The translations under genes and the position numbers were made by a program. Source: a virus. From it: 30,017 nt of DNA. The stretch is taken from the UHGV virus genome UHGV-0128346. One strand, 5' to 3'. The notes under the pieces are model-generated. The model saw only the letters and a list, made by a program, of their open reading frames with translations, searched no databases and was not told the DNA's origin. This document shows positions 4,811-21,376 of the stretch, piece by piece. Numbering within the stretch: the stretch's first letter is position 1; every line of letters begins with the position of its first letter.

Positions 4811-6764
4811 TCACTCCTCCGGACAGCTTCGCTGCCAGTTCTTTAAGGGTTGGCCGGGTCGTCTCTTCTTCCCGGGATTTTGCCAGTACAGCCAGATCAA
4901 GCTGCCAGCGTTGCACGGACACACGTAATGCCGCGTAGGCATACACCAGGCAGTCCAGCGCTTCGTTACGCCGCTTTTTGTTATCCCACAGCAGACGCAT
5001 CTTTCCTTTTTCCCACTTCTCCACAAGCTCTTCCGCGACCAGTTGCTGCGCCTCTGTCTGCGAAAAAATCTCCGGATCATCAGGAAAACGGATAGCATAC
5101 GACGTGGCTTCATCCACAGGCGTGGGATCGGCTTTCATACGGGCATAGAGAATTTCTTTTGCGGTGTCCGTCCCCACTTCACACAGATACACGCCCCGCT
5201 GATTGCGGGTTTTTGGCATGGTGATCACCGGCTTGCCATAGACAGATGCGCCTTTTACCGGCAGCACCCGGAAAACACCGTGTTTTTTTGACCTCTGATA
5301 AACGATTTCGCCATCGATCCCCCCGATGTCCCAGCAGACACGGGAAATGGTCATTTCGGTTCCGTCTGCATGGCGGTATTTTTTGTTGATCGCCGCATCC
5401 ACACGTAACAGCGTCTCTTCCTCATCGGGACGCCCCATAATGATGATTTTATCCACCAGAAAGGCTTCCTCTCCCGGAGCCCATCCCCAGACATACATCT
5501 CAAAACGGTTTCGCTGCGAGTCAATGCCCGCCGTCAGATAAACCACCCGGGCAGGCACCGCCGCCGTGTAACGCACAACCTTATCCATCAGCACCTGGTG
5601 ATCGAGTTTTTCGCCCACAGCCTCTTCCCAGGTCTCGCCCAGCGTGGTGTTCACAAAGGTTTTCAGGCCGTTGGGATCTTTCAGTGCATCCAGCCAGTCA
5701 TAGACAATCTGTACCCAGGTGGTGAACGGACTGTACGCCGTCCAGATATGGAAAGTGATGGAGCGCGGCGGCGGAATTTCATCACCCCGGGCGCTGAAAA
5801 ACATCAGGCCGTCACGGGTCCACATGCCCGTGTTTTCACAGATCCACCGCCCGTTACTCTGGTCAAGCTCAGACTGATGGATCACACAGCCATGATGCTC
5901 ACAAAGGTAGAAAACACTTTCTGGCTTATTCTTCTCCCACTTAAGACCGAAAGGCGAGGCATCATCGCCAAATTTCAGATACTGCTCCTCCCCACAGTGC
6001 GGACAGGGCACATAAAAACGCATGAAGTGTGCCGACTCGTTAGCGGCTTTTTCGATCTGGCAGGAGCCTTTGATTTTAGGCGTCGAGCCGCGAATGGATT
6101 TTGGCCATACAGAGCCCTCAATACGTTTATCCCCCAGCAGGGTTGGCGAACCCTCTTTTTCAACATCCGGTTCGAACGAGGAAAGCTCGTCATAACAGAC
6201 CACATCCACGGATTTTTCACGGTAGTTTTTTGCTGCCGCACCACCCAGACACCAGAACCCCACACCGGAGGAAAAACGCTTCAGGGTGAGCGTATTATCG
6301 CGGTGTTTTCTTCCGAACCATGGAGCCAGCTCCAGCAATGCAGGAACATCCCTTATCGTTGGCTCAACATGAGATTTCATAAAATCTTCAGCAGCTGAGT
6401 CCGTGGGCTGAAAAAGAAGGCTGTTGCGTGATTTATGCTCAATAAAATAAGCCTCCACTCCCAGCAACATCTTTGTATAACCAACACGGGCAGATTTAAT
6501 CAGGTTAACCGTGCGAATCAGATCGTTGCCCATACAGTTCATGATGCCAACCTGAAACGGCAGTGTTTCCCATCGCCCCGGGGTATAAGACGACTCTTTA
6601 GGAAGGTAATAATGTTTATTGGCCCACTGAACTGTCGTCAGTGGAACAGGAATAATGAGAGATAAAAGCCCTGTAGCTATCGCACCGGCTGCATTAGCTG
6701 CCTTCTGCGCGTCTGAAATCATCGATCCACCCGCCCACGTTTTCACCGGCCTTAGCTGCAACAT
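4794..6764 (-). CDS. A: Terminase large subunit (lambda gpA-like)
   Basis: 656-aa ORF immediately after Nu1, size and position of lambda A; overlaps the Nu1 3' end as in lambda. Confidence 0.93.
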
Positions 6765-8194: not shown

Positions 8195-8521
8195 TCAGGG
8201 ACGTGACGGCGTAAAGATAAATTGTCTCTTCACTCCCTGACAGGGACGATTCTTTTCAAATCGCCATTTCGCCATGGCCTTCACCACTTCATCACGAAAC
8301 AAATTATGAGGCTCTGAGCGGAGAAAAACGATCCGTGTCACAGTCCCATCAGCACCAATATCGAACTTAACCTCAACCAGCCCCTTGATATAATTTGCTG
8401 CAGCATATTCCGGATATCGTGGATACACCGTCACTAATTGCCGGGGCTCATCAGCTTTTTGCTGCGAGCATCCCACTGCTAGGACAGATAACAGAAAAAG
8501 TAGTAAAAGGCGTCTTTTCAT
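8195..8521 (-). CDS. Putative lipoprotein with TonB C-terminal-like domain
   Basis: MKRRLLLLFLLSVLAVGC is a lipobox signal; C-terminal part (VEVKFDIGADGTVTRIVFLRS...AMAKWRF) resembles the TonB C-terminal fold; AGGA ribosome-binding site. Confidence 0.5.
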   Translation of the reverse strand: MKRRLLLLFLLSVLAVGCSQQKADEPRQLVTVYPRYPEYAAANYIKGLVEVKFDIGADGTVTRIVFLRSEPHNLFRDEVVKAMAKWRFEKNRPCQGVKRQFIFTPSRP

Positions 8522-9001
8522 TTTTATTCCTACGGGTCTTATTCTGACAATATATCCTGTGTTCCAGACTGCCACATCACCACATCCTGTGCCATTATCT
8601 GACTCACATTACATACATCGCATCGGGATACAGTAGTAGCACTTTCTGTAATACAGCTTCCGGTTTCTTCCACCATCGCACCGGGATAAATCCGCGAATC
8701 ATTAACGCGGTAAAAACCCGGTGTGCATCGTTTTTAATTATTCCCGCACACTCACGCAGAAGGAATTCCCCGTCGGGCTACGGTCATGGTTAATGCGGGA
8801 ATACGGCGACGATACAGCGCAGCTAAAAGGGTAATGGACGGATAGACCGGTTTATTTCATTCTACAGGATTCTGAGTGTCCCCAACTCCCTCCAATCGTC
8901 TGAGCTCACCTGTGTAGTTTTAATTTTCATCAATCCATTTAACTATCGTTTAATTGTTGTCACATAGGATTCTGCCGTTTTTAACAATGCAGGATAATAA
9001 G

Positions 9002-9295
9002 ATGAAAAAAATGTTGTTTTCTGCCGCTCTGGCAATGCTTATTACAGGATGTGCTCAACAGACGTTTACTGTTGGAAACAAACCGACAGCAGTAACACCA
9101 AAGGAAACCATCACCCATCATTTCTTCGTTTCGGGAATTGGGCAGAAGAAAACTGTCGATGCAGCAAAAATTTGTGGTGGTGCAGAAAATGTGGTTAAAA
9201 CAGAAACCCAGCAAACATTCGTAAATGGATTGCTCGGTTTCATCACTTTTGGCATTTATACTCCGCTGGAAGCGCGGGTGTATTGCTCAAAATAA
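9002..9295 (+). CDS. bor: Bor-like serum-resistance lipoprotein
   Basis: MKKMLFSAALAMLITGCAQQTFTV...ICGGAENVVKTETQQTFVNGLLGFIT matches recalled lambda Bor almost residue for residue; opposite strand to the lysis genes, as in lambda. Confidence 0.9.
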   Translation: MKKMLFSAALAMLITGCAQQTFTVGNKPTAVTPKETITHHFFVSGIGQKKTVDAAKICGGAENVVKTETQQTFVNGLLGFITFGIYTPLEARVYCSK

Positions 9296-9326: not shown

Positions 9327-9803
9327 CTATCTGCACTGCTCATTAATATACTTCTGGGTTCCTTCCAGTTGTTTTTGCATAGTGATCAGCCTCTCTCTGA
9401 GGGTGAAATAATCCCGTTCAGCGGTGTCTGCCAGTCGGGGGGAGGCTGCATTATCCACGCCGGAGGCGGTGGTGGCTTCACGCACTGACTGACAGACTGC
9501 TTTGATGTGCAACCGACGACGACCAGCGGCAACATCATCACGCAGAGCATCATTTTCAGCTTTCGCATCAGCTAACTCCTTCGTGTATTTTGCATCGAGC
9601 GCAGCAACATCACGCTGACGCATCTGCATGTCAGTAATTGCCGCGTTCGCCAGCTTCAGTTCTCTGGCATTTTTGTCGCGCAGGGCTTTGTAGGCGATTG
9701 CGTTATCACGGTAATGATTAACAGCCCATGACAGGCAGACGATGATGCAGATAACCAGAGCATAAATAATCGCGGCGACTCTGCTCACTGATCTATCCCC
9801 CAA
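9327..9803 (-). CDS. Rz: Rz i-spanin
   Basis: Near-identical to recalled lambda Rz ([20 protein letters not shown]...KYINEQCR). Confidence 0.95.
9386..9568 (-). CDS. Rz1: Rz1 o-spanin (nested in Rz, +1 frame)
   Basis: 60-aa nested ORF with lipobox LPLVVVGC and the proline-rich tract [15 protein letters not shown], as in lambda Rz1. Confidence 0.9.
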
Positions 9804-10318
9804 CAGGCTAATGCGCTTTCCTGGTCACGACGAATAACCTGTCCATAGCAGTTATTTGAACGTATGCGGCAATCGCGCCCACCATCTTTTATCCACCAGC
9901 GAATCGCCTCGCATGCACCTTTACGATCACCGGCATTCAGCCGCTTATAAAACGTCGACGGGAAACACTTACCGGGGCCAATGTTATAGGGACAAAATGA
10001 CGCGATACCCGCTTTCTGTGGTTCGGTCAGTGGCACTTTAATATTGCGCTCCACCCATGCCAGCGCCTTATCCCGTTCAATGGCGTTAACCTGGTCGCAT
10101 TTTTCCTTCGACAGTTTCATACCGGGAACAACGGGTTTTCCATCCACCACCGTGGCACCCCGACAGATGGTCCAGATGCCGGAACCATCGCGGTATGCCG
10201 TTGTGTGGTTACCTTCTTTTTCATCCAGAAACTGGTCGAGAATATCAGGCGCAGGCGCACCGACGGCAATCAGTGCCAGAACGGCAGCCGACAGGCCGTA
10301 TCTGATTTTTGCGTTCAT
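9785..10318 (-). CDS. R: SAR endolysin (phage 21 R-type lysozyme, GH24)
   Basis: 177 aa; N-terminal signal-anchor-release segment ([16 protein letters not shown]) then E-x8-D-x5-T catalytic spacing ([16 protein letters not shown]); paired with a pinholin upstream. Confidence 0.9.
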
Positions 10319-10423
10319 GGATATTTATCAGGATTTATCGGTTTCTGAACCCTGGATATGTTTATCTGTCCCGGCCTGTTGAATCAGGCAAGGAATAGTT
10401 AAATACAATAGAGAGGATTGTTT

Positions 10424-10696
10424 ATGGACAATAGCACCATTTCTCTACAGGAGTTGCTCGACTGCATTTCCAGGCTTCGGGATGATGTAAATGCCCTTAC
10501 TGTCGCATTTTCATATCTGGCATTCTCAATTCCCAAGGAACAAATGCAACCAACACTGGCATCGCTCCAGCTTGAATCAATCAATCCCAAATGGTCCCAG
10601 CAACAACAAAATTCTTTCAAGTGGCTGGCGGTATTACTGGAGGAAAAATATGCTGGTGAAATTACCATTTCGGCGGAGTCTTCAGTGAACCAGTAA
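10424..10696 (+). CDS. Hypothetical protein (90 aa), reverse-oriented insert inside the lysis cassette
   Basis: ATG with strong AGAGAGGA ribosome-binding site; lower GC than its flanks; possible TTGAAT/TACAAT promoter upstream; converges on and overlaps the 3' end of the minus-strand 114-aa gene by ~35 nt. Confidence 0.4.
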   Translation: MDNSTISLQELLDCISRLRDDVNALTVAFSYLAFSIPKEQMQPTLASLQLESINPKWSQQQQNSFKWLAVLLEEKYAGEITISAESSVNQ

Positions 10697-11006
10697 TTCT
10701 TCCCGGCAGTTTTCCTTTGTAGGTTATCCACACACTCTGCGCCTCTAAAATTATGGGGCGCTTTTCCGGCGACTGCTCATCCCCTCCACATAACCCGGTA
10801 GCAACATCCAGGAAGACCTGTCTGATGCTCCTTCTGGCTGCTGCCTCATAAAACTCCAGCGCGGCACCTTCAACACGGTCCAGCGAGATGTCCAGGTCAA
10901 AAATTTCACCGTCAAAGCGTTCTTTGTCCTGTAATGCTAAAGTTACCGTAACTTTATTCTCAAAATTGCGGATCCCTTTCACAATCATTTCATAGTTTTG
11001 GACCAT
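10662..11006 (-). CDS. Hypothetical protein between holin and endolysin (possibly YdfR-like)
   Basis: 114-aa ORF; its ATG is 4 nt after the holin stop with a GAGGAGA ribosome-binding site; same position as ydfR between essQ and rrrQ in prophage Qin, as I recall. Confidence 0.6.
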   Translation of the reverse strand: MVQNYEMIVKGIRNFENKVTVTLALQDKERFDGEIFDLDISLDRVEGAALEFYEAAARRSIRQVFLDVATGLCGGDEQSPEKRPIILEAQSVWITYKGKLPGRITGSLKTPPKW

Positions 11007-11010
11007 TATA

Positions 11011-11226
11011 TTACTCTCCTCTCGCAGCCTTTCTTCTGTCTTCTCTGATTTTGAAGTACAGATTCGTCAGATAAGTCAGAAAGCCCAGAACCAGACTTCC
11101 CAGTACACCAATCGCAGCCCACTGAGACGGACTAACCTGATCAAGCCATTGTAAAAACCAGTAGCCAGCACTGCCTGCGGAGGTGCCGTAGGCAATGCCT
11201 GTTGATATTTTTTCCATCTGATACAT
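11011..11226 (-). CDS. S: Pinholin (phage 21 S-type holin), dual-start MYQMEK
   Basis: From Met25 the ORF reads [66 protein letters not shown], essentially the S21 sequence as recalled; two closely spaced Met codons. Confidence 0.85.
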
Positions 11227-11356
11227 ATCCCGCCCCAACAGACCTGTGCTACCGGAAAGAAAAAAGGCCATCAGCAAAACTCTGATGGCCTGAATCACCT
11301 TTACCAGTCATGTATGAAAAAATACGCACAACCAATTGACAATAATTATCATTTTC

Positions 11357-11682: not shown

Positions 11683-11740
11683 TTCCTTGCCGCCCGTGCC
11701 TCCCAGCGCGGGCTTTTTTATCCAAAAAATACCCCTCCGG
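11683..11740. terminator. Back-to-back intrinsic terminators sharing a T6/A6 tract (plus-strand hairpin ~11683-11704, minus-strand hairpin ~11721-11740)
   Basis: GCCCG...CGGGC followed by TTTTTT on the plus strand; TACCCCTC-CGGA-GAGGGGTA preceded by AAAAAA on the plus strand, i.e. followed by U6 on the minus strand. Confidence 0.6.
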
Positions 11741-12028
11741 AGAGGGGTATCATACAAGGGGATGACCATGATGCATGGTGCCGGGTGCCTCCCGGTGAGT
11801 CCGGCATCAGCATACGAACCCGCGATTATCCCAGAACTGACTGCTGATTCGCCCCGCCGCTTAGGGGGATTCACCATGCGTTTTTTTATTTACAAACTCT
11901 TCGCCAGACAAACAACCATTAACTGGCTGAATTGTGAGGTATTTCAATTTTTAGAAAACTGACCAACCTCCGCTTATACGCCGGGCATGGAGCGGATACA
12001 AAAAAGCCCCGCAAAAGCAGATCAGAAG

Positions 12029-12319: not shown

Positions 12320-13381
12320 TCACAAAATTGTATTTGCTGATAACATACTGATTTCCTGGATGGTCTGATTAAACCGCTCTGTCTCAAGCTCAACACCTAA
12401 CGCCCGACGCCCCAGCGCCATTGCTGCTTTTATTGTGGAACCGGATCCCATAAAGAAATCAGCAACCAGATCGCCGGGTCGACTACTGGCATTGATTATT
12501 TGCCTGAGCATATCCGCCGGTTTCTCACACGGATGTTTACCCGGGTAGAACTGAACGGGTTTATGCATCCAGACATCGGTATAAGGCACGGAGACTGATA
12601 CGGAGAAATAGCGCCGGAGAGATTTAAACTCATCCAGCAATTCAGAATATTTGCGATTCAGTGAATCATAAGATGCCACCAACTGGTGGTGTGGTTGTTC
12701 CAGTTGTTGTTCCTGAAACTTCTCTGCCGCTATACGGGAAAACAGTGCCTGTAACTTCCGGTAGTCAGCCTCATTCGGCAACTGCCACTGACTGGCACCA
12801 AACCAGTGGGAAACCATATTTTTCTTACCTGTGGCTTCGGCAATTTGTTTTGCCGTTATACCCAGTTCGGCACGAGCATCCCTGAAATACGATATCAGCG
12901 GTGCCATTATGTGCTGTTTGAGTTCCCTTTCTTTTGCCACATAGCCGTCACTTTTGCCGCGATATGGCCCCCGGTAATGTTCAGCAAACAGAACGCGCTC
13001 TGTGGCAGGAAAATATGCGCGCAGACTTTCTTTATTACACCCATTCCAACGTCCGGACGGCTTCGCCCAGATGATATGGTTAAGCACGTTGAAACGTTCA
13101 CGCATCATGATCTCAATATCAGATGCCAGGCGATGCCCACAGAACAGGTAAAGGCTTCCGGCAGGTTTCAACACCCGCCAGAACTGGGCCAGACAGTGGT
13201 CCAGCCACTTAAGGTAATCTTCGTCCCCTTTCCACTGATTGTCCCAACCGTTGGGTTTCACCTTGAAGTAAGGCGGATCGGTAACAATCAGGTCAATGGA
13301 ATCATCAGGCAGGGACTGAATAAAATGCAGGCAATCAGCGTTGATTAAATCAATACTGTTTATTTTTACAGTGTTTTTCAT
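12320..13381 (-). CDS. DNA methyltransferase, beta-class (N6-adenine or N4-cytosine); motif IV DPPY near N-terminus, motif I FxGxG near C-terminus
   Basis: 353 aa; LIVTDPPYF at residues ~31-39 and DFFMGSGST near the C-terminus give the beta-class motif order; no adjacent restriction enzyme recognised. Confidence 0.85.
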   Translation of the reverse strand: MKNTVKINSIDLINADCLHFIQSLPDDSIDLIVTDPPYFKVKPNGWDNQWKGDEDYLKWLDHCLAQFWRVLKPAGSLYLFCGHRLASDIEIMMRERFNVLNHIIWAKPSGRWNGCNKESLRAYFPATERVLFAEHYRGPYRGKSDGYVAKERELKQHIMAPLISYFRDARAELGITAKQIAEATGKKNMVSHWFGASQWQLPNEADYRKLQALFSRIAAEKFQEQQLEQPHHQLVASYDSLNRKYSELLDEFKSLRRYFSVSVSVPYTDVWMHKPVQFYPGKHPCEKPADMLRQIINASSRPGDLVADFFMGSGSTIKAAMALGRRALGVELETERFNQTIQEISMLSANTIL

Positions 13382-20780: not shown

Positions 20781-20942
20781 AGTGACATCCTCATGTGCGA
20801 ATTTTGAAAACTCACCACATGGGACGCCAATCACAGAGGTGGTGAGACGTACAGGGTTGGCGTAACCGGTCGCACATGACCCCGGCGCATCTTTCGATGC
20901 CCCTGCACGCCCCACCATAATTTGGATGTGAGGAAACGTGCG

Positions 20943-20966
20943 CAAAAAAACCGCTGAAGCGCGGTT
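20943..20966 (-). terminator. tR1-like intrinsic terminator in the early-right operon
   Basis: ACCGC-TGAAGC-GCGGT hairpin followed by U7 on the minus strand. Confidence 0.5.
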
Positions 20967-21376
20967 ATGCGCATGTGCGAATTTCAGGACGCCAATCCCG
21001 GCACCCGCTTTATAAGGTGCCTGAACAGTGTAACGTCCCGGAATTGCAGAATCAATATGCTGGTGGTCCTTCACACTCAACAAAATCACGCCTGAATTTC
21101 CACAAAGGACTAAAGCACTCATGCGGGTAGTCTTTGCGAAGATAGATAACGCGCTGTGTTTCTGGCTCCCAACGAATAACATGGACATAAAGCCCTCTTC
21201 CGTCACGAAACCAGCGGTTAAGTTCCTGCACAACTCGCCCCCCACAGTCAGGTAAAGTTCTCTGTGGTTACTTACAGCCAGGTGATTTGGTAATCTGCAT
21301 TCATGCCGTAACAACAGGTGTTCAGCGACGCTGACCACCAGCTGTTGCGACAAACGGTTATTTGCCGTTAAACTAT

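Follow-up and report, generated by a model that had tools for sequence, protein, structure and literature searches.

The virus genome UHGV-0128346 (30,017 nucleotides (nt); hereafter the window), a lambdoid prophage of E. coli, carries, inside a lysis cassette located on the minus strand, a plus-strand open reading frame (ORF) of 90 amino acids (aa), ORF90. Our analysis shows that ORF90 is a genuine protein-coding gene under purifying selection and that its presence in the cassette is optional. The reading best supported by these data is that lysis does not require ORF90 and that selection acts on its protein. ORF90 is probably a moron-type accessory gene, carried in reverse orientation in a recombination-prone slot, and its product may bind a host protein and act on the physiology of the lysogen and not on lysis.

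ORF90 is a protein-coding gene under purifying selection

The gene and its ribosome-binding site are as follows:
10424-10696, plus strand: ORF90, ATG start, TAA stop, 90 aa
10410-10417, plus strand: Shine-Dalgarno (SD) sequence AGAGAGGA, with 6 nt between its end and the ATG of ORF90

A TTG at 10418 is an alternative start that would lead to a protein of 92 aa. An initial annotation, made from the letters of the window, had described a 90-aa plus-strand ORF with a strong ribosome-binding site; this was borne out, the SD sequence being canonical. The context GAGGAtt(a/g)tttATG is kept in every aligned Escherichia allele of ORF90.

The length of the ORF is not significant by itself, as the window holds many chance ORFs of at least 100 aa. 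What places ORF90 far beyond chance is its match to PHROG 2411, its conserved open frame with a ratio of non-synonymous to synonymous substitution rates (dN/dS) of about 0.3 and the existence of remote homologues. The match to PHROG 2411 is end to end (E-value 3.5e-59, residues 1-90 to profile positions 1-90 of 90). The 441-nt segment carrying ORF90 was found in 1,129 of the 5,426 complete E. coli genomes, with 87-100% identity and, among the matches listed, the full-length ones coincide with a plus-strand coding sequence called 'hypothetical protein' by the Prokaryotic Genome Annotation Pipeline (PGAP). ORF90 is also present and annotated in the deposited genomes of phages phiSTEC1575-Stx2k and Chlobot, the recorded source of the latter being puddle water/mud.

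About 100 loci were fetched and yielded 29 distinct nucleotide alleles (82-100% identity). The ORF90 frame is open in all seven divergent lineages, and a nonsense mutation is present in only 3 of about 99 loci, these being closely related copies. The dN/dS values, calculated by the pooled Nei-Gojobori method over the ORF90 alleles, were as follows:
ORF90 frame, codons 1-79: 0.33
ORF90 frame, codons 1-47 (N-terminal half): 0.25
four other frames: 0.8-1.1
antisense frame containing a 110-aa ORF: 0.24

The last of these frames corresponds to a rival that the initial annotation had itself put forward as the possible real gene:
10399-10731, minus strand: antisense ORF, 110 aa, spurious

Its low dN/dS is due to the third-codon (wobble) positions that it has in common with ORF90, and therefore dN/dS alone cannot separate the two ORFs (0.33 versus 0.24). 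The variable columns number 30, 22 and 49 at ORF90 codon positions 1, 2 and 3, respectively. The decisive point is that the antisense ORF contains one or two stop codons in each divergent lineage; it was rejected on this ground and ORF90 is the real gene. The antisense ORF has no match in PHROG or Pfam.

It could also be argued that ORF90 is a decaying or non-functional ORF, i.e. acquired DNA that is open by chance and was annotated for its length only. Nonsense or frameshift mutations do occur in some alleles (the frameshifts, seen in a few database proteins, lie within the last third), the frame runs through the inserted segment without meeting a stop and terminates only in sequence antisense to ydfR, and the protein has no known domain. 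However, unlike the antisense frame, that of ORF90 is open in all divergent lineages, its dN/dS lies well under 1 and the SD sequence is conserved. Moreover, homologues with 30-60% identity and with the same length and helix pattern are found in several genera, in a syntenic position in Serratia, and the confidence of the structure prediction goes up to 81 with a diverse alignment. This explanation is already largely refuted and we regard it as extremely unlikely.

One truncated copy of ORF90 (P0121), 46 aa long and present on 46 contigs, is labelled 'ybl58' in some E. coli records and appears to be a pseudogene derived from ORF90.

The tails of ORF90 and YdfR are overprinted

The initial annotation had noticed that ORF90 converges on a minus-strand gene encoding 114 aa. 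This holds, and the two genes overlap by 35 nt (10662-10696). The partner is the following gene:
10662-11006, minus strand: ydfR (DUF1327), 114 aa (Pfam E-value 1.9e-42), a late-operon gene of the holin/endolysin interval

YdfR of the window is a mosaic: residues 1-71 match YdfR of E. coli K-12 and residues ~72-114 constitute a different tail, which is encoded antisense to the 3' flank of ORF90 (10662-10797, minus strand). The loci compared for this tail were L103:4055-4366, L105:5239-5430 and L112:5248-5436. For the overlap, we obtained a dN/dS of 0.16 in the frame of YdfR and of 0.90 in that of ORF90. The YdfR frame is thus the constrained one, which fits with a C-terminal tail of ORF90 that is disordered and accidental. 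The two tails are overprinted, each being encoded on the strand opposite the other.

YdfR of K-12 is reported to bind the catalytic half of RNase E through its residues 1-72 and to co-purify RNA (PMC13232886). These residues are almost exactly the part of YdfR that is conserved between K-12 and the window.

The interval between ydfR and the endolysin gene is a cargo slot

The late genes around ORF90 and the segments discussed below are:
9327-11298, minus strand: lysis cassette of the phage 21 type, containing the late genes that flank ORF90
11011-11226, minus strand: S21-type class II pinholin, 71 aa, with a dual-start MYQM motif (PF04971, E-value 2.6e-35)
9785-10318, minus strand: lysozyme gene, 177 aa (PF00959, E-value 7.6e-25), first late gene past the slot
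9327-9803 and 9386-9568, minus strand: Rz and Rz1, respectively, downstream of the lysozyme gene
~9002-9295, plus strand: bor, 1.1 kb from ORF90
10319 to ~10797: segment variable with respect to the K-12 Qin prophage, made of a 105-nt leader, ORF90 and a 3' flank
10380-10655: indel segment of 276 nt, present in the window and absent from the 63-nt allele (alignment with L087)

The pinholin assignment agrees with the PGAP annotation of relatives. The lysozyme, judging from its N-terminal sequence, can be read as a signal-arrest-release (SAR) endolysin of the R21 type.

In the window, ydfR and the lysozyme gene are 343 nt apart and this interval houses ORF90. In the Qin prophage of K-12, the gene order is essQ-ydfR-rrrQ, ydfR and rrrQ overlap by 4 nt and there is no ORF90. 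Since homology between the ydfR genes of Qin and the window starts at ~10797 (YdfR residue ~72), the variable segment extends from 10319 to this position. In two 'empty' alleles (L087 and L101), ydfR and the lysozyme gene are separated by 63 nt alone. The corresponding indel segment reaches the ydfR stop on its right side and is bordered by the imperfect repeats GTTGAAT and GTGAAAT, one at each edge. The lysozyme-proximal leader alone is matched in up to ~730 further complete genomes.

Other genes can be found at this place. In phage Perceval, the slot between ydfR and the endolysin gene is occupied by an unrelated plus-strand gene of 79 aa (phrog_21218, L102:2134-2373), its homology to ORF90 being rejected by hhalign (probability 1.4%). 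The Perceval gene resembles ORF90 in its position, its reverse orientation, its convergence and overlap with a ydfR-like gene and the same GC-rich hairpin that follows it. In contrast, the two genes have no detectable sequence kinship and differ in their left and right junctions. In phages of the Stx2k type (Stx, Shiga toxin), a block containing the holin gene, ydfR, ORF90 and the leader is joined to another lysis set (two holins and an M15 peptidase). At this junction, homology to the window begins precisely at the ATG of the next late gene.

The loci carrying ORF90 were distributed among the following architectures:
lysozyme-ORF90-ydfR: 89 loci
ORF90 intact, N-terminal part of ydfR deleted: 3 loci
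Stx2k type: 3 loci
insertion sequence (IS) element on the left side: 2 loci

The genes flanking ORF90 belong to the same families as those of the cassette of phage 21 and K-12 Qin (S21-type holin, ydfR, R21-type endolysin and Rz/Rz1). Unlike the window, Qin has no gap between ydfR and the endolysin gene, and its YdfR protein is 103 aa long, without the tail of 38 residues that in the window overlaps the 3' flank of ORF90. The initial annotation had proposed that ORF90 was an acquired module in a type of cassette that is normally compact and encoded on a single strand, and that the holin-endolysin interval should be compared across cassettes of this type. Qin, the 63-nt alleles and Perceval all agree with this proposal and show in addition that the module is optional: ORF90 is missing from many otherwise homologous cassettes and hence is not a constant component of them. 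Our comparison identifies the holin-endolysin interval as a slot for cargo, of which at least four states are seen in cassettes of the phage-21 type.

In several genomes, IS elements were also seen, either adjoining the block that carries ORF90 or separating ydfR from the holin gene (L086:1752-2921, L098:339-2927 and L096:3701-4929). They are of the IS3-family ISEc52, IS66-family and IS3-like types, and ORF90 is intact each time. Furthermore, a perfect hairpin (CGCCAGTG-gtagga-CACTGGCG) is located upstream of both the Perceval slot gene (L102 ~2085-2110) and a Citrobacter homologue of ORF90 (L105 ~4925-4950). It may be a boundary or regulatory element common to the slot.

ORF90 belongs to a wider family of enterobacterial proteins

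A word-indexed search retrieved only relatives of ORF90 with at least 68% identity, nearly all of them labelled Escherichia or Shigella, and a scan of genome contigs with peptide patterns of close relatives found E. ruysiae only. A wider family, hereafter called X, was recovered by a profile search of 1.84 billion cluster representatives and then by a second search seeded with an alignment. Its members (81-108 aa, 30-62% identity) come from Citrobacter, Serratia (many species), Sodalis, Chania, Gibbsiella, Chimaeribacter and Acerihabitans. They have a common core, ELLxxIxxLRxxVNxLxxAFSYLAFS..E...TI.AL.FES.N. The remote homologues align with ORF90 residues ~8-77 and diverge past ~78, where their C-terminal tails are unrelated. 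PHROG 2411 is also matched by the homologues from Citrobacter, contig L112 and Serratia. The genomic contexts of X are:
Serratia: chromosomal, syntenic across species, in the order rne-ABM-pyrC-dinI-X-bssS-solA
Sodalis and a metagenomic lineage: chromosomal
Citrobacter freundii prophage: reverse-oriented, immediately upstream of the holin and lysozyme genes
contig L112: reverse-oriented in a late region, with two small genes and terminase genes downstream

The X family is therefore core-like in Serratia, and homologues that do not belong to phages exist. The chromosomal homologues are similar to ORF90 in length, core and predicted helices. They differ from it by their low identity (30-40%), their stand-alone location in a neighbourhood of stress genes, the lack of lysis genes and of an overlapping partner, and C-terminal tails unrelated to that of ORF90. 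In Serratia, X forms a separate unit because dinI has its own LexA box and terminator. The LexA box at dinI of Serratia marcescens is a canonical one (L104:4594-4613). Upstream of X in the same species, the sequence TCTGTATTTAA (L104:4970-4985) resembles an extended -10 element of the RpoS type. This hints that the chromosomal X of Serratia may be induced in stationary phase or by stress.

In the Citrobacter prophage and in L112, X is convergent with a small late gene of 62-63 aa and overlaps it. The two partners are homologues of one another (E-value 7e-7). The motif ...[RK][IL]TG[SD]L..P.. ends both partner proteins as well as YdfR of the window. DNA homology between Citrobacter and the window spans X and continues into the YdfR-type tail. 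The partner genes were also considered as members of DUF1327, and this was rejected: they have no significant Pfam match and only their last 12 residues resemble the YdfR tail.

This recurrent arrangement, with X reverse-oriented in a late region and tail-to-tail with a gene ending in ...[RK][IL]TG[SD]L..P.. in three of three independent phage contexts, could reflect a role in cis. In such a case, the convergent ORF90 RNA would damp leaky or premature expression of the endolysin gene (and of ydfR) by antisense effect or transcriptional interference, and the protein would be secondary. The ORF90 transcript would indeed be antisense to ~340 nt of the late transcript, with a 35-nt overlap with the 3' end of ydfR. 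However, selection acts on the protein, with a dN/dS of ~0.3 and third codon positions that vary most. Moreover, homologues with 30-40% identity retain the protein and not the DNA, those of Serratia and Sodalis are chromosomal with no lysis genes nearby, cassettes devoid of ORF90 are common and an unrelated gene can fill the slot. We consider a cis-regulatory role unlikely.

Alternatively, ORF90 could be a partner of YdfR in a two-gene module, for instance an inhibitor/modulator pair, which would explain the constant tail-to-tail layout in phages. Among the Escherichia loci that we examined, 94 have the two genes side by side. In the phages of Citrobacter and L112, X faces a short convergent gene with the same C-terminal motif, and K-12 YdfR is reported to bind RNase E by residues 1-72 and to co-purify RNA (PMC13232886). 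However, the linkage is largely forced because the 3' end of ORF90 lies inside ydfR, and ORF90 stays intact despite deletion of the N-terminal domain of YdfR. Many ydfR genes are without ORF90, chromosomal X homologues have no ydfR neighbour and the Citrobacter and L112 partners lack a significant DUF1327 match. A functional pairing of the two proteins thus seems very unlikely.

A broader proposal would combine several of these elements: X would be a conserved small regulator of Enterobacterales, located in the Serratia chromosome between dinI, an SOS gene, and bssS, which encodes a biofilm regulator. Lambdoid phages would have captured it repeatedly, each time tail-to-tail with a YdfR-type gene, and in the lysogen X or its antisense RNA would tune the SOS/stress response or the RNase E-dependent decay of lysis mRNA, setting the timing of induction or lysis. 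We give this proposal little credit.

The ORF90 product is predicted to be a small cytoplasmic helical protein

The ORF90 product has a molecular mass of 10.2 kDa and is acidic, with an isoelectric point of 4.4. Its maximal Kyte-Doolittle mean over 19 residues is 0.88, and hydropathy detected neither a transmembrane segment nor a signal peptide. In AlphaFold2 models, use of a deeper and more diverse alignment raised the predicted local distance difference test (pLDDT) score to 81, with helices at residues 8-35, 38-52 and 59-76. Residues 83-90 are disordered in these models and the tail has a pLDDT below 50. ORF90 is thus predicted to be a cytoplasmic three-helix bundle. The protein can be divided into a conserved helical domain (residues 1-78) and a variable tail (residues ~80-90).

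Fold searches with the ORF90 model returned only generic helical bundles and no informative match. No match to ORF90 was found above the curated cut-offs in Pfam-A and NCBIfam, and 54 homologues compared with Pfam and NCBIfam gave just scattered sub-threshold matches. Sequence searches of the PDB gave no significant match, the E-value of 0.074 for YibL being not significant. Rfam 15 gave nothing over 10319-10800, either at the gathering score or at an E-value of at most 1. Literature searches found nothing on ORF90, and the ydfR query returned only the paper on the interaction between YdfR and RNase E. The traits of lysis proteins, i.e. a transmembrane segment, a signal or lipoprotein signal sequence and a muralytic domain, are absent from ORF90 according to hydropathy and Pfam. 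ORF90 is therefore devoid of lysis-protein features.

Many prophage slots of this kind hold defence or counter-defence genes, and ORF90, as a small, optional and reverse-oriented gene located at a prophage hot spot where other cargo can be found, could be involved in phage defence, superinfection exclusion or anti-defence. However, no match to PADLOC-DB 2.0 was obtained at an E-value of at most 1, and the Serratia homologues are core-like single genes with a fixed position between dinI and bssS, without any defence-island pattern. A defence or anti-defence function is thus quite unlikely.

ORF90 has candidate expression signals of its own

The following plus-strand signals were considered:
10379-10409, plus strand: candidate sigma-70 promoter TTGAAT-19 nt-TACAAT (hexamers at 10379-84 and 10404-09)
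10334-10362, plus strand: alternative promoter-like site TTTATC-17 nt-TATGTT (8.0 bits, not above background)
10739-10765, plus strand: candidate terminator, a GC-rich hairpin (7 bp, 9-nt loop, -13 kcal/mol) followed by UUUU

Promoters were searched with a position weight matrix allowing spacers of 15-19 nt, the background being given by the top-scoring site in each 200 nt of the window (6.4 +/- 2.3 bits). The TTGAAT/TACAAT site scored 11.4 bits and is the top sigma-70-like site in the 200 nt upstream of ORF90. A site is found at the identical position in all Escherichia alleles (7-11 bits). The TAAATACAAT sequence is conserved, and the -35 hexamer varies across alleles (TTGCCT, TTAGCT, TCGACT and CTGAAT). 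TTGAAT forms the loop of a 5-bp hairpin, GCCTG/CAGGC (10374-10389). The alternative site at 10334-10362 is positionally conserved and lies in the leader that is also carried by the 'empty' alleles; it would give a 5' untranslated region of ~54 nt that includes the SD sequence. No LexA box (CTG-N10-CAG) was seen by eye upstream of ORF90. Downstream, the candidate terminator hairpin (10739-10761) starts 43 nt past the ORF90 stop, within the region encoding the YdfR tail on the opposite strand, and a stronger hairpin of 9 bp is found at the homologous place after the 79-aa ORF of Perceval. These signals make independent transcription of ORF90 plausible and, by analogy, its expression in the uninduced lysogen is plausible too.

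ORF90 as a probable moron-type accessory gene

Like a moron, ORF90 sits between two genes that are adjacent in related phages (overlapping in Qin, 63 nt apart in L087 and L101). In the scenario that we favour, ORF90 would derive from an uncharacterised family of small proteins of Enterobacterales, encoded by a stand-alone chromosomal gene in Serratia and relatives and captured by lambdoid phages of Escherichia and Citrobacter. The acquired unit would consist of a short leader, a canonical SD sequence and the 78-residue helical domain, with read-through out of the insert and, beyond it, a hairpin and a U-tract. This read-through would have given the protein a disordered tail, the coding sequence of which is the complement of the 3' end of ydfR. 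Transcription of ORF90 would start at a promoter of its own and oppose the late operon, and would consequently occur mainly while late transcription is off. The small cytoplasmic protein may then bind a host protein and alter the physiology of the lysogen, a step proposed with limited confidence. The loci in which the N-terminal part of ydfR is deleted keep an intact ORF90.

The lambda genes bor and lom and the IraM-like gene provide the closest comparison, as they too are extra genes between genes that are adjacent in relatives. Genes encoding IraM-like anti-adaptors are found in L085, L086 and L002, on the plus strand just upstream of the holin gene. As for other morons of lambdoid late regions, ORF90 is directed against the late operon, has its own ribosome-binding site and shows presence/absence variation between cassettes that are otherwise identical; its mildly lower GC content and its candidate promoter and terminator enter this comparison as tentative resemblances only. 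Unlike these morons, ORF90 is not external to the lysis cassette: it separates the endolysin gene from the holin gene and ydfR. It runs into the neighbouring late gene, with which it shares 35 nt, and its product is predicted to be a cytoplasmic helical protein and not a lipoprotein or an outer-membrane protein.

Several points weigh against the interpretation of ORF90 as moron-type cargo. Frameshifted or truncated copies (including P0045, P0046, P0050, P0059 and P0121) exist, and selection on ORF90 is therefore not strict. The YdfR tail associated with ORF90 is still encoded in the 63-nt alleles, which may therefore have arisen by secondary deletion and not be ancestral empty sites. The promoter proposed in the initial annotation stood only in part: the hexamers TTGAAT and TACAAT are present, with the best local score, but they are separated by a 19-nt spacer, the -35 is degenerate and variable, and the -10 ends 14 nt before the ATG. 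With a -10 so near the SD sequence, a normal +1 would fall in or after the latter, which would be lost from the mRNA; hence, the proposed promoter and the ribosome-binding site are not both usable. In addition, a standard scan for promoters and terminators reported neither for ORF90. The candidate terminator (10739-10765) is weakened by two mismatches in L089 and, as it lies within the ydfR coding sequence, its conservation may stem from YdfR. Finally, the distinct base composition that had been put forward is lower in GC as stated, but only mildly: the indel segment has 42.4% GC versus 49.7 +/- 5.5% for segments of the same size (9th percentile), the values of the neighbours being 47% for the holin gene and ydfR and 42% for bor.

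The annotation of ORF90, its PHROG number and the existence of morons in lambdoid late regions were already well known. What is new is the assignment of the coding strand by an evolutionary test, the link to chromosomal homologues, the multi-state slot and the overprinted tails of ORF90 and YdfR. The coding strand is thereby settled at a locus present in about one fifth of complete E. coli genomes. Moreover, an 'Escherichia hypothetical protein' is now tied to a wider family of small proteins that is core-like in Serratia and offers a tractable entry point. If ORF90 does affect the stress physiology of the lysogen or the timing of lysis, it would be relevant to the biology of Stx phages, because the same ORF90 block adjoins stx2 in Stx2k phages.

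Other features of the window

A strong terminator-like hairpin (10 bp and a T-run; 11265-11291, minus strand) is located just upstream of the holin start. This is the site expected for a lambdoid tR', at the end of the short pR' transcript. A sub-threshold SgrS-like Rfam match (11260-11356) overlaps this hairpin and probably corresponds to the terminator alone. Downstream of bor, the window contains an ORF of 126 aa (8195-8575, minus strand); at the equivalent place, Perceval carries a gene annotated 'TonB fragment'.

Several small RNA families are also represented. A full-length Rfam match to the STnc100 small RNA (11720-11908, minus strand, 114.5 bits) lies between the holin gene and a DNA-methyltransferase gene (12320-13381), upstream of the former and downstream of the latter. 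In addition, two adjacent minus-strand matches (20835-20922 and 20944-21020) correspond to the C4 antisense RNA (75 bits) and the Hfq-binding RNA isrK (62 bits). A pairing of C4 and isrK belongs to antirepressor control of the P1/P7 type.

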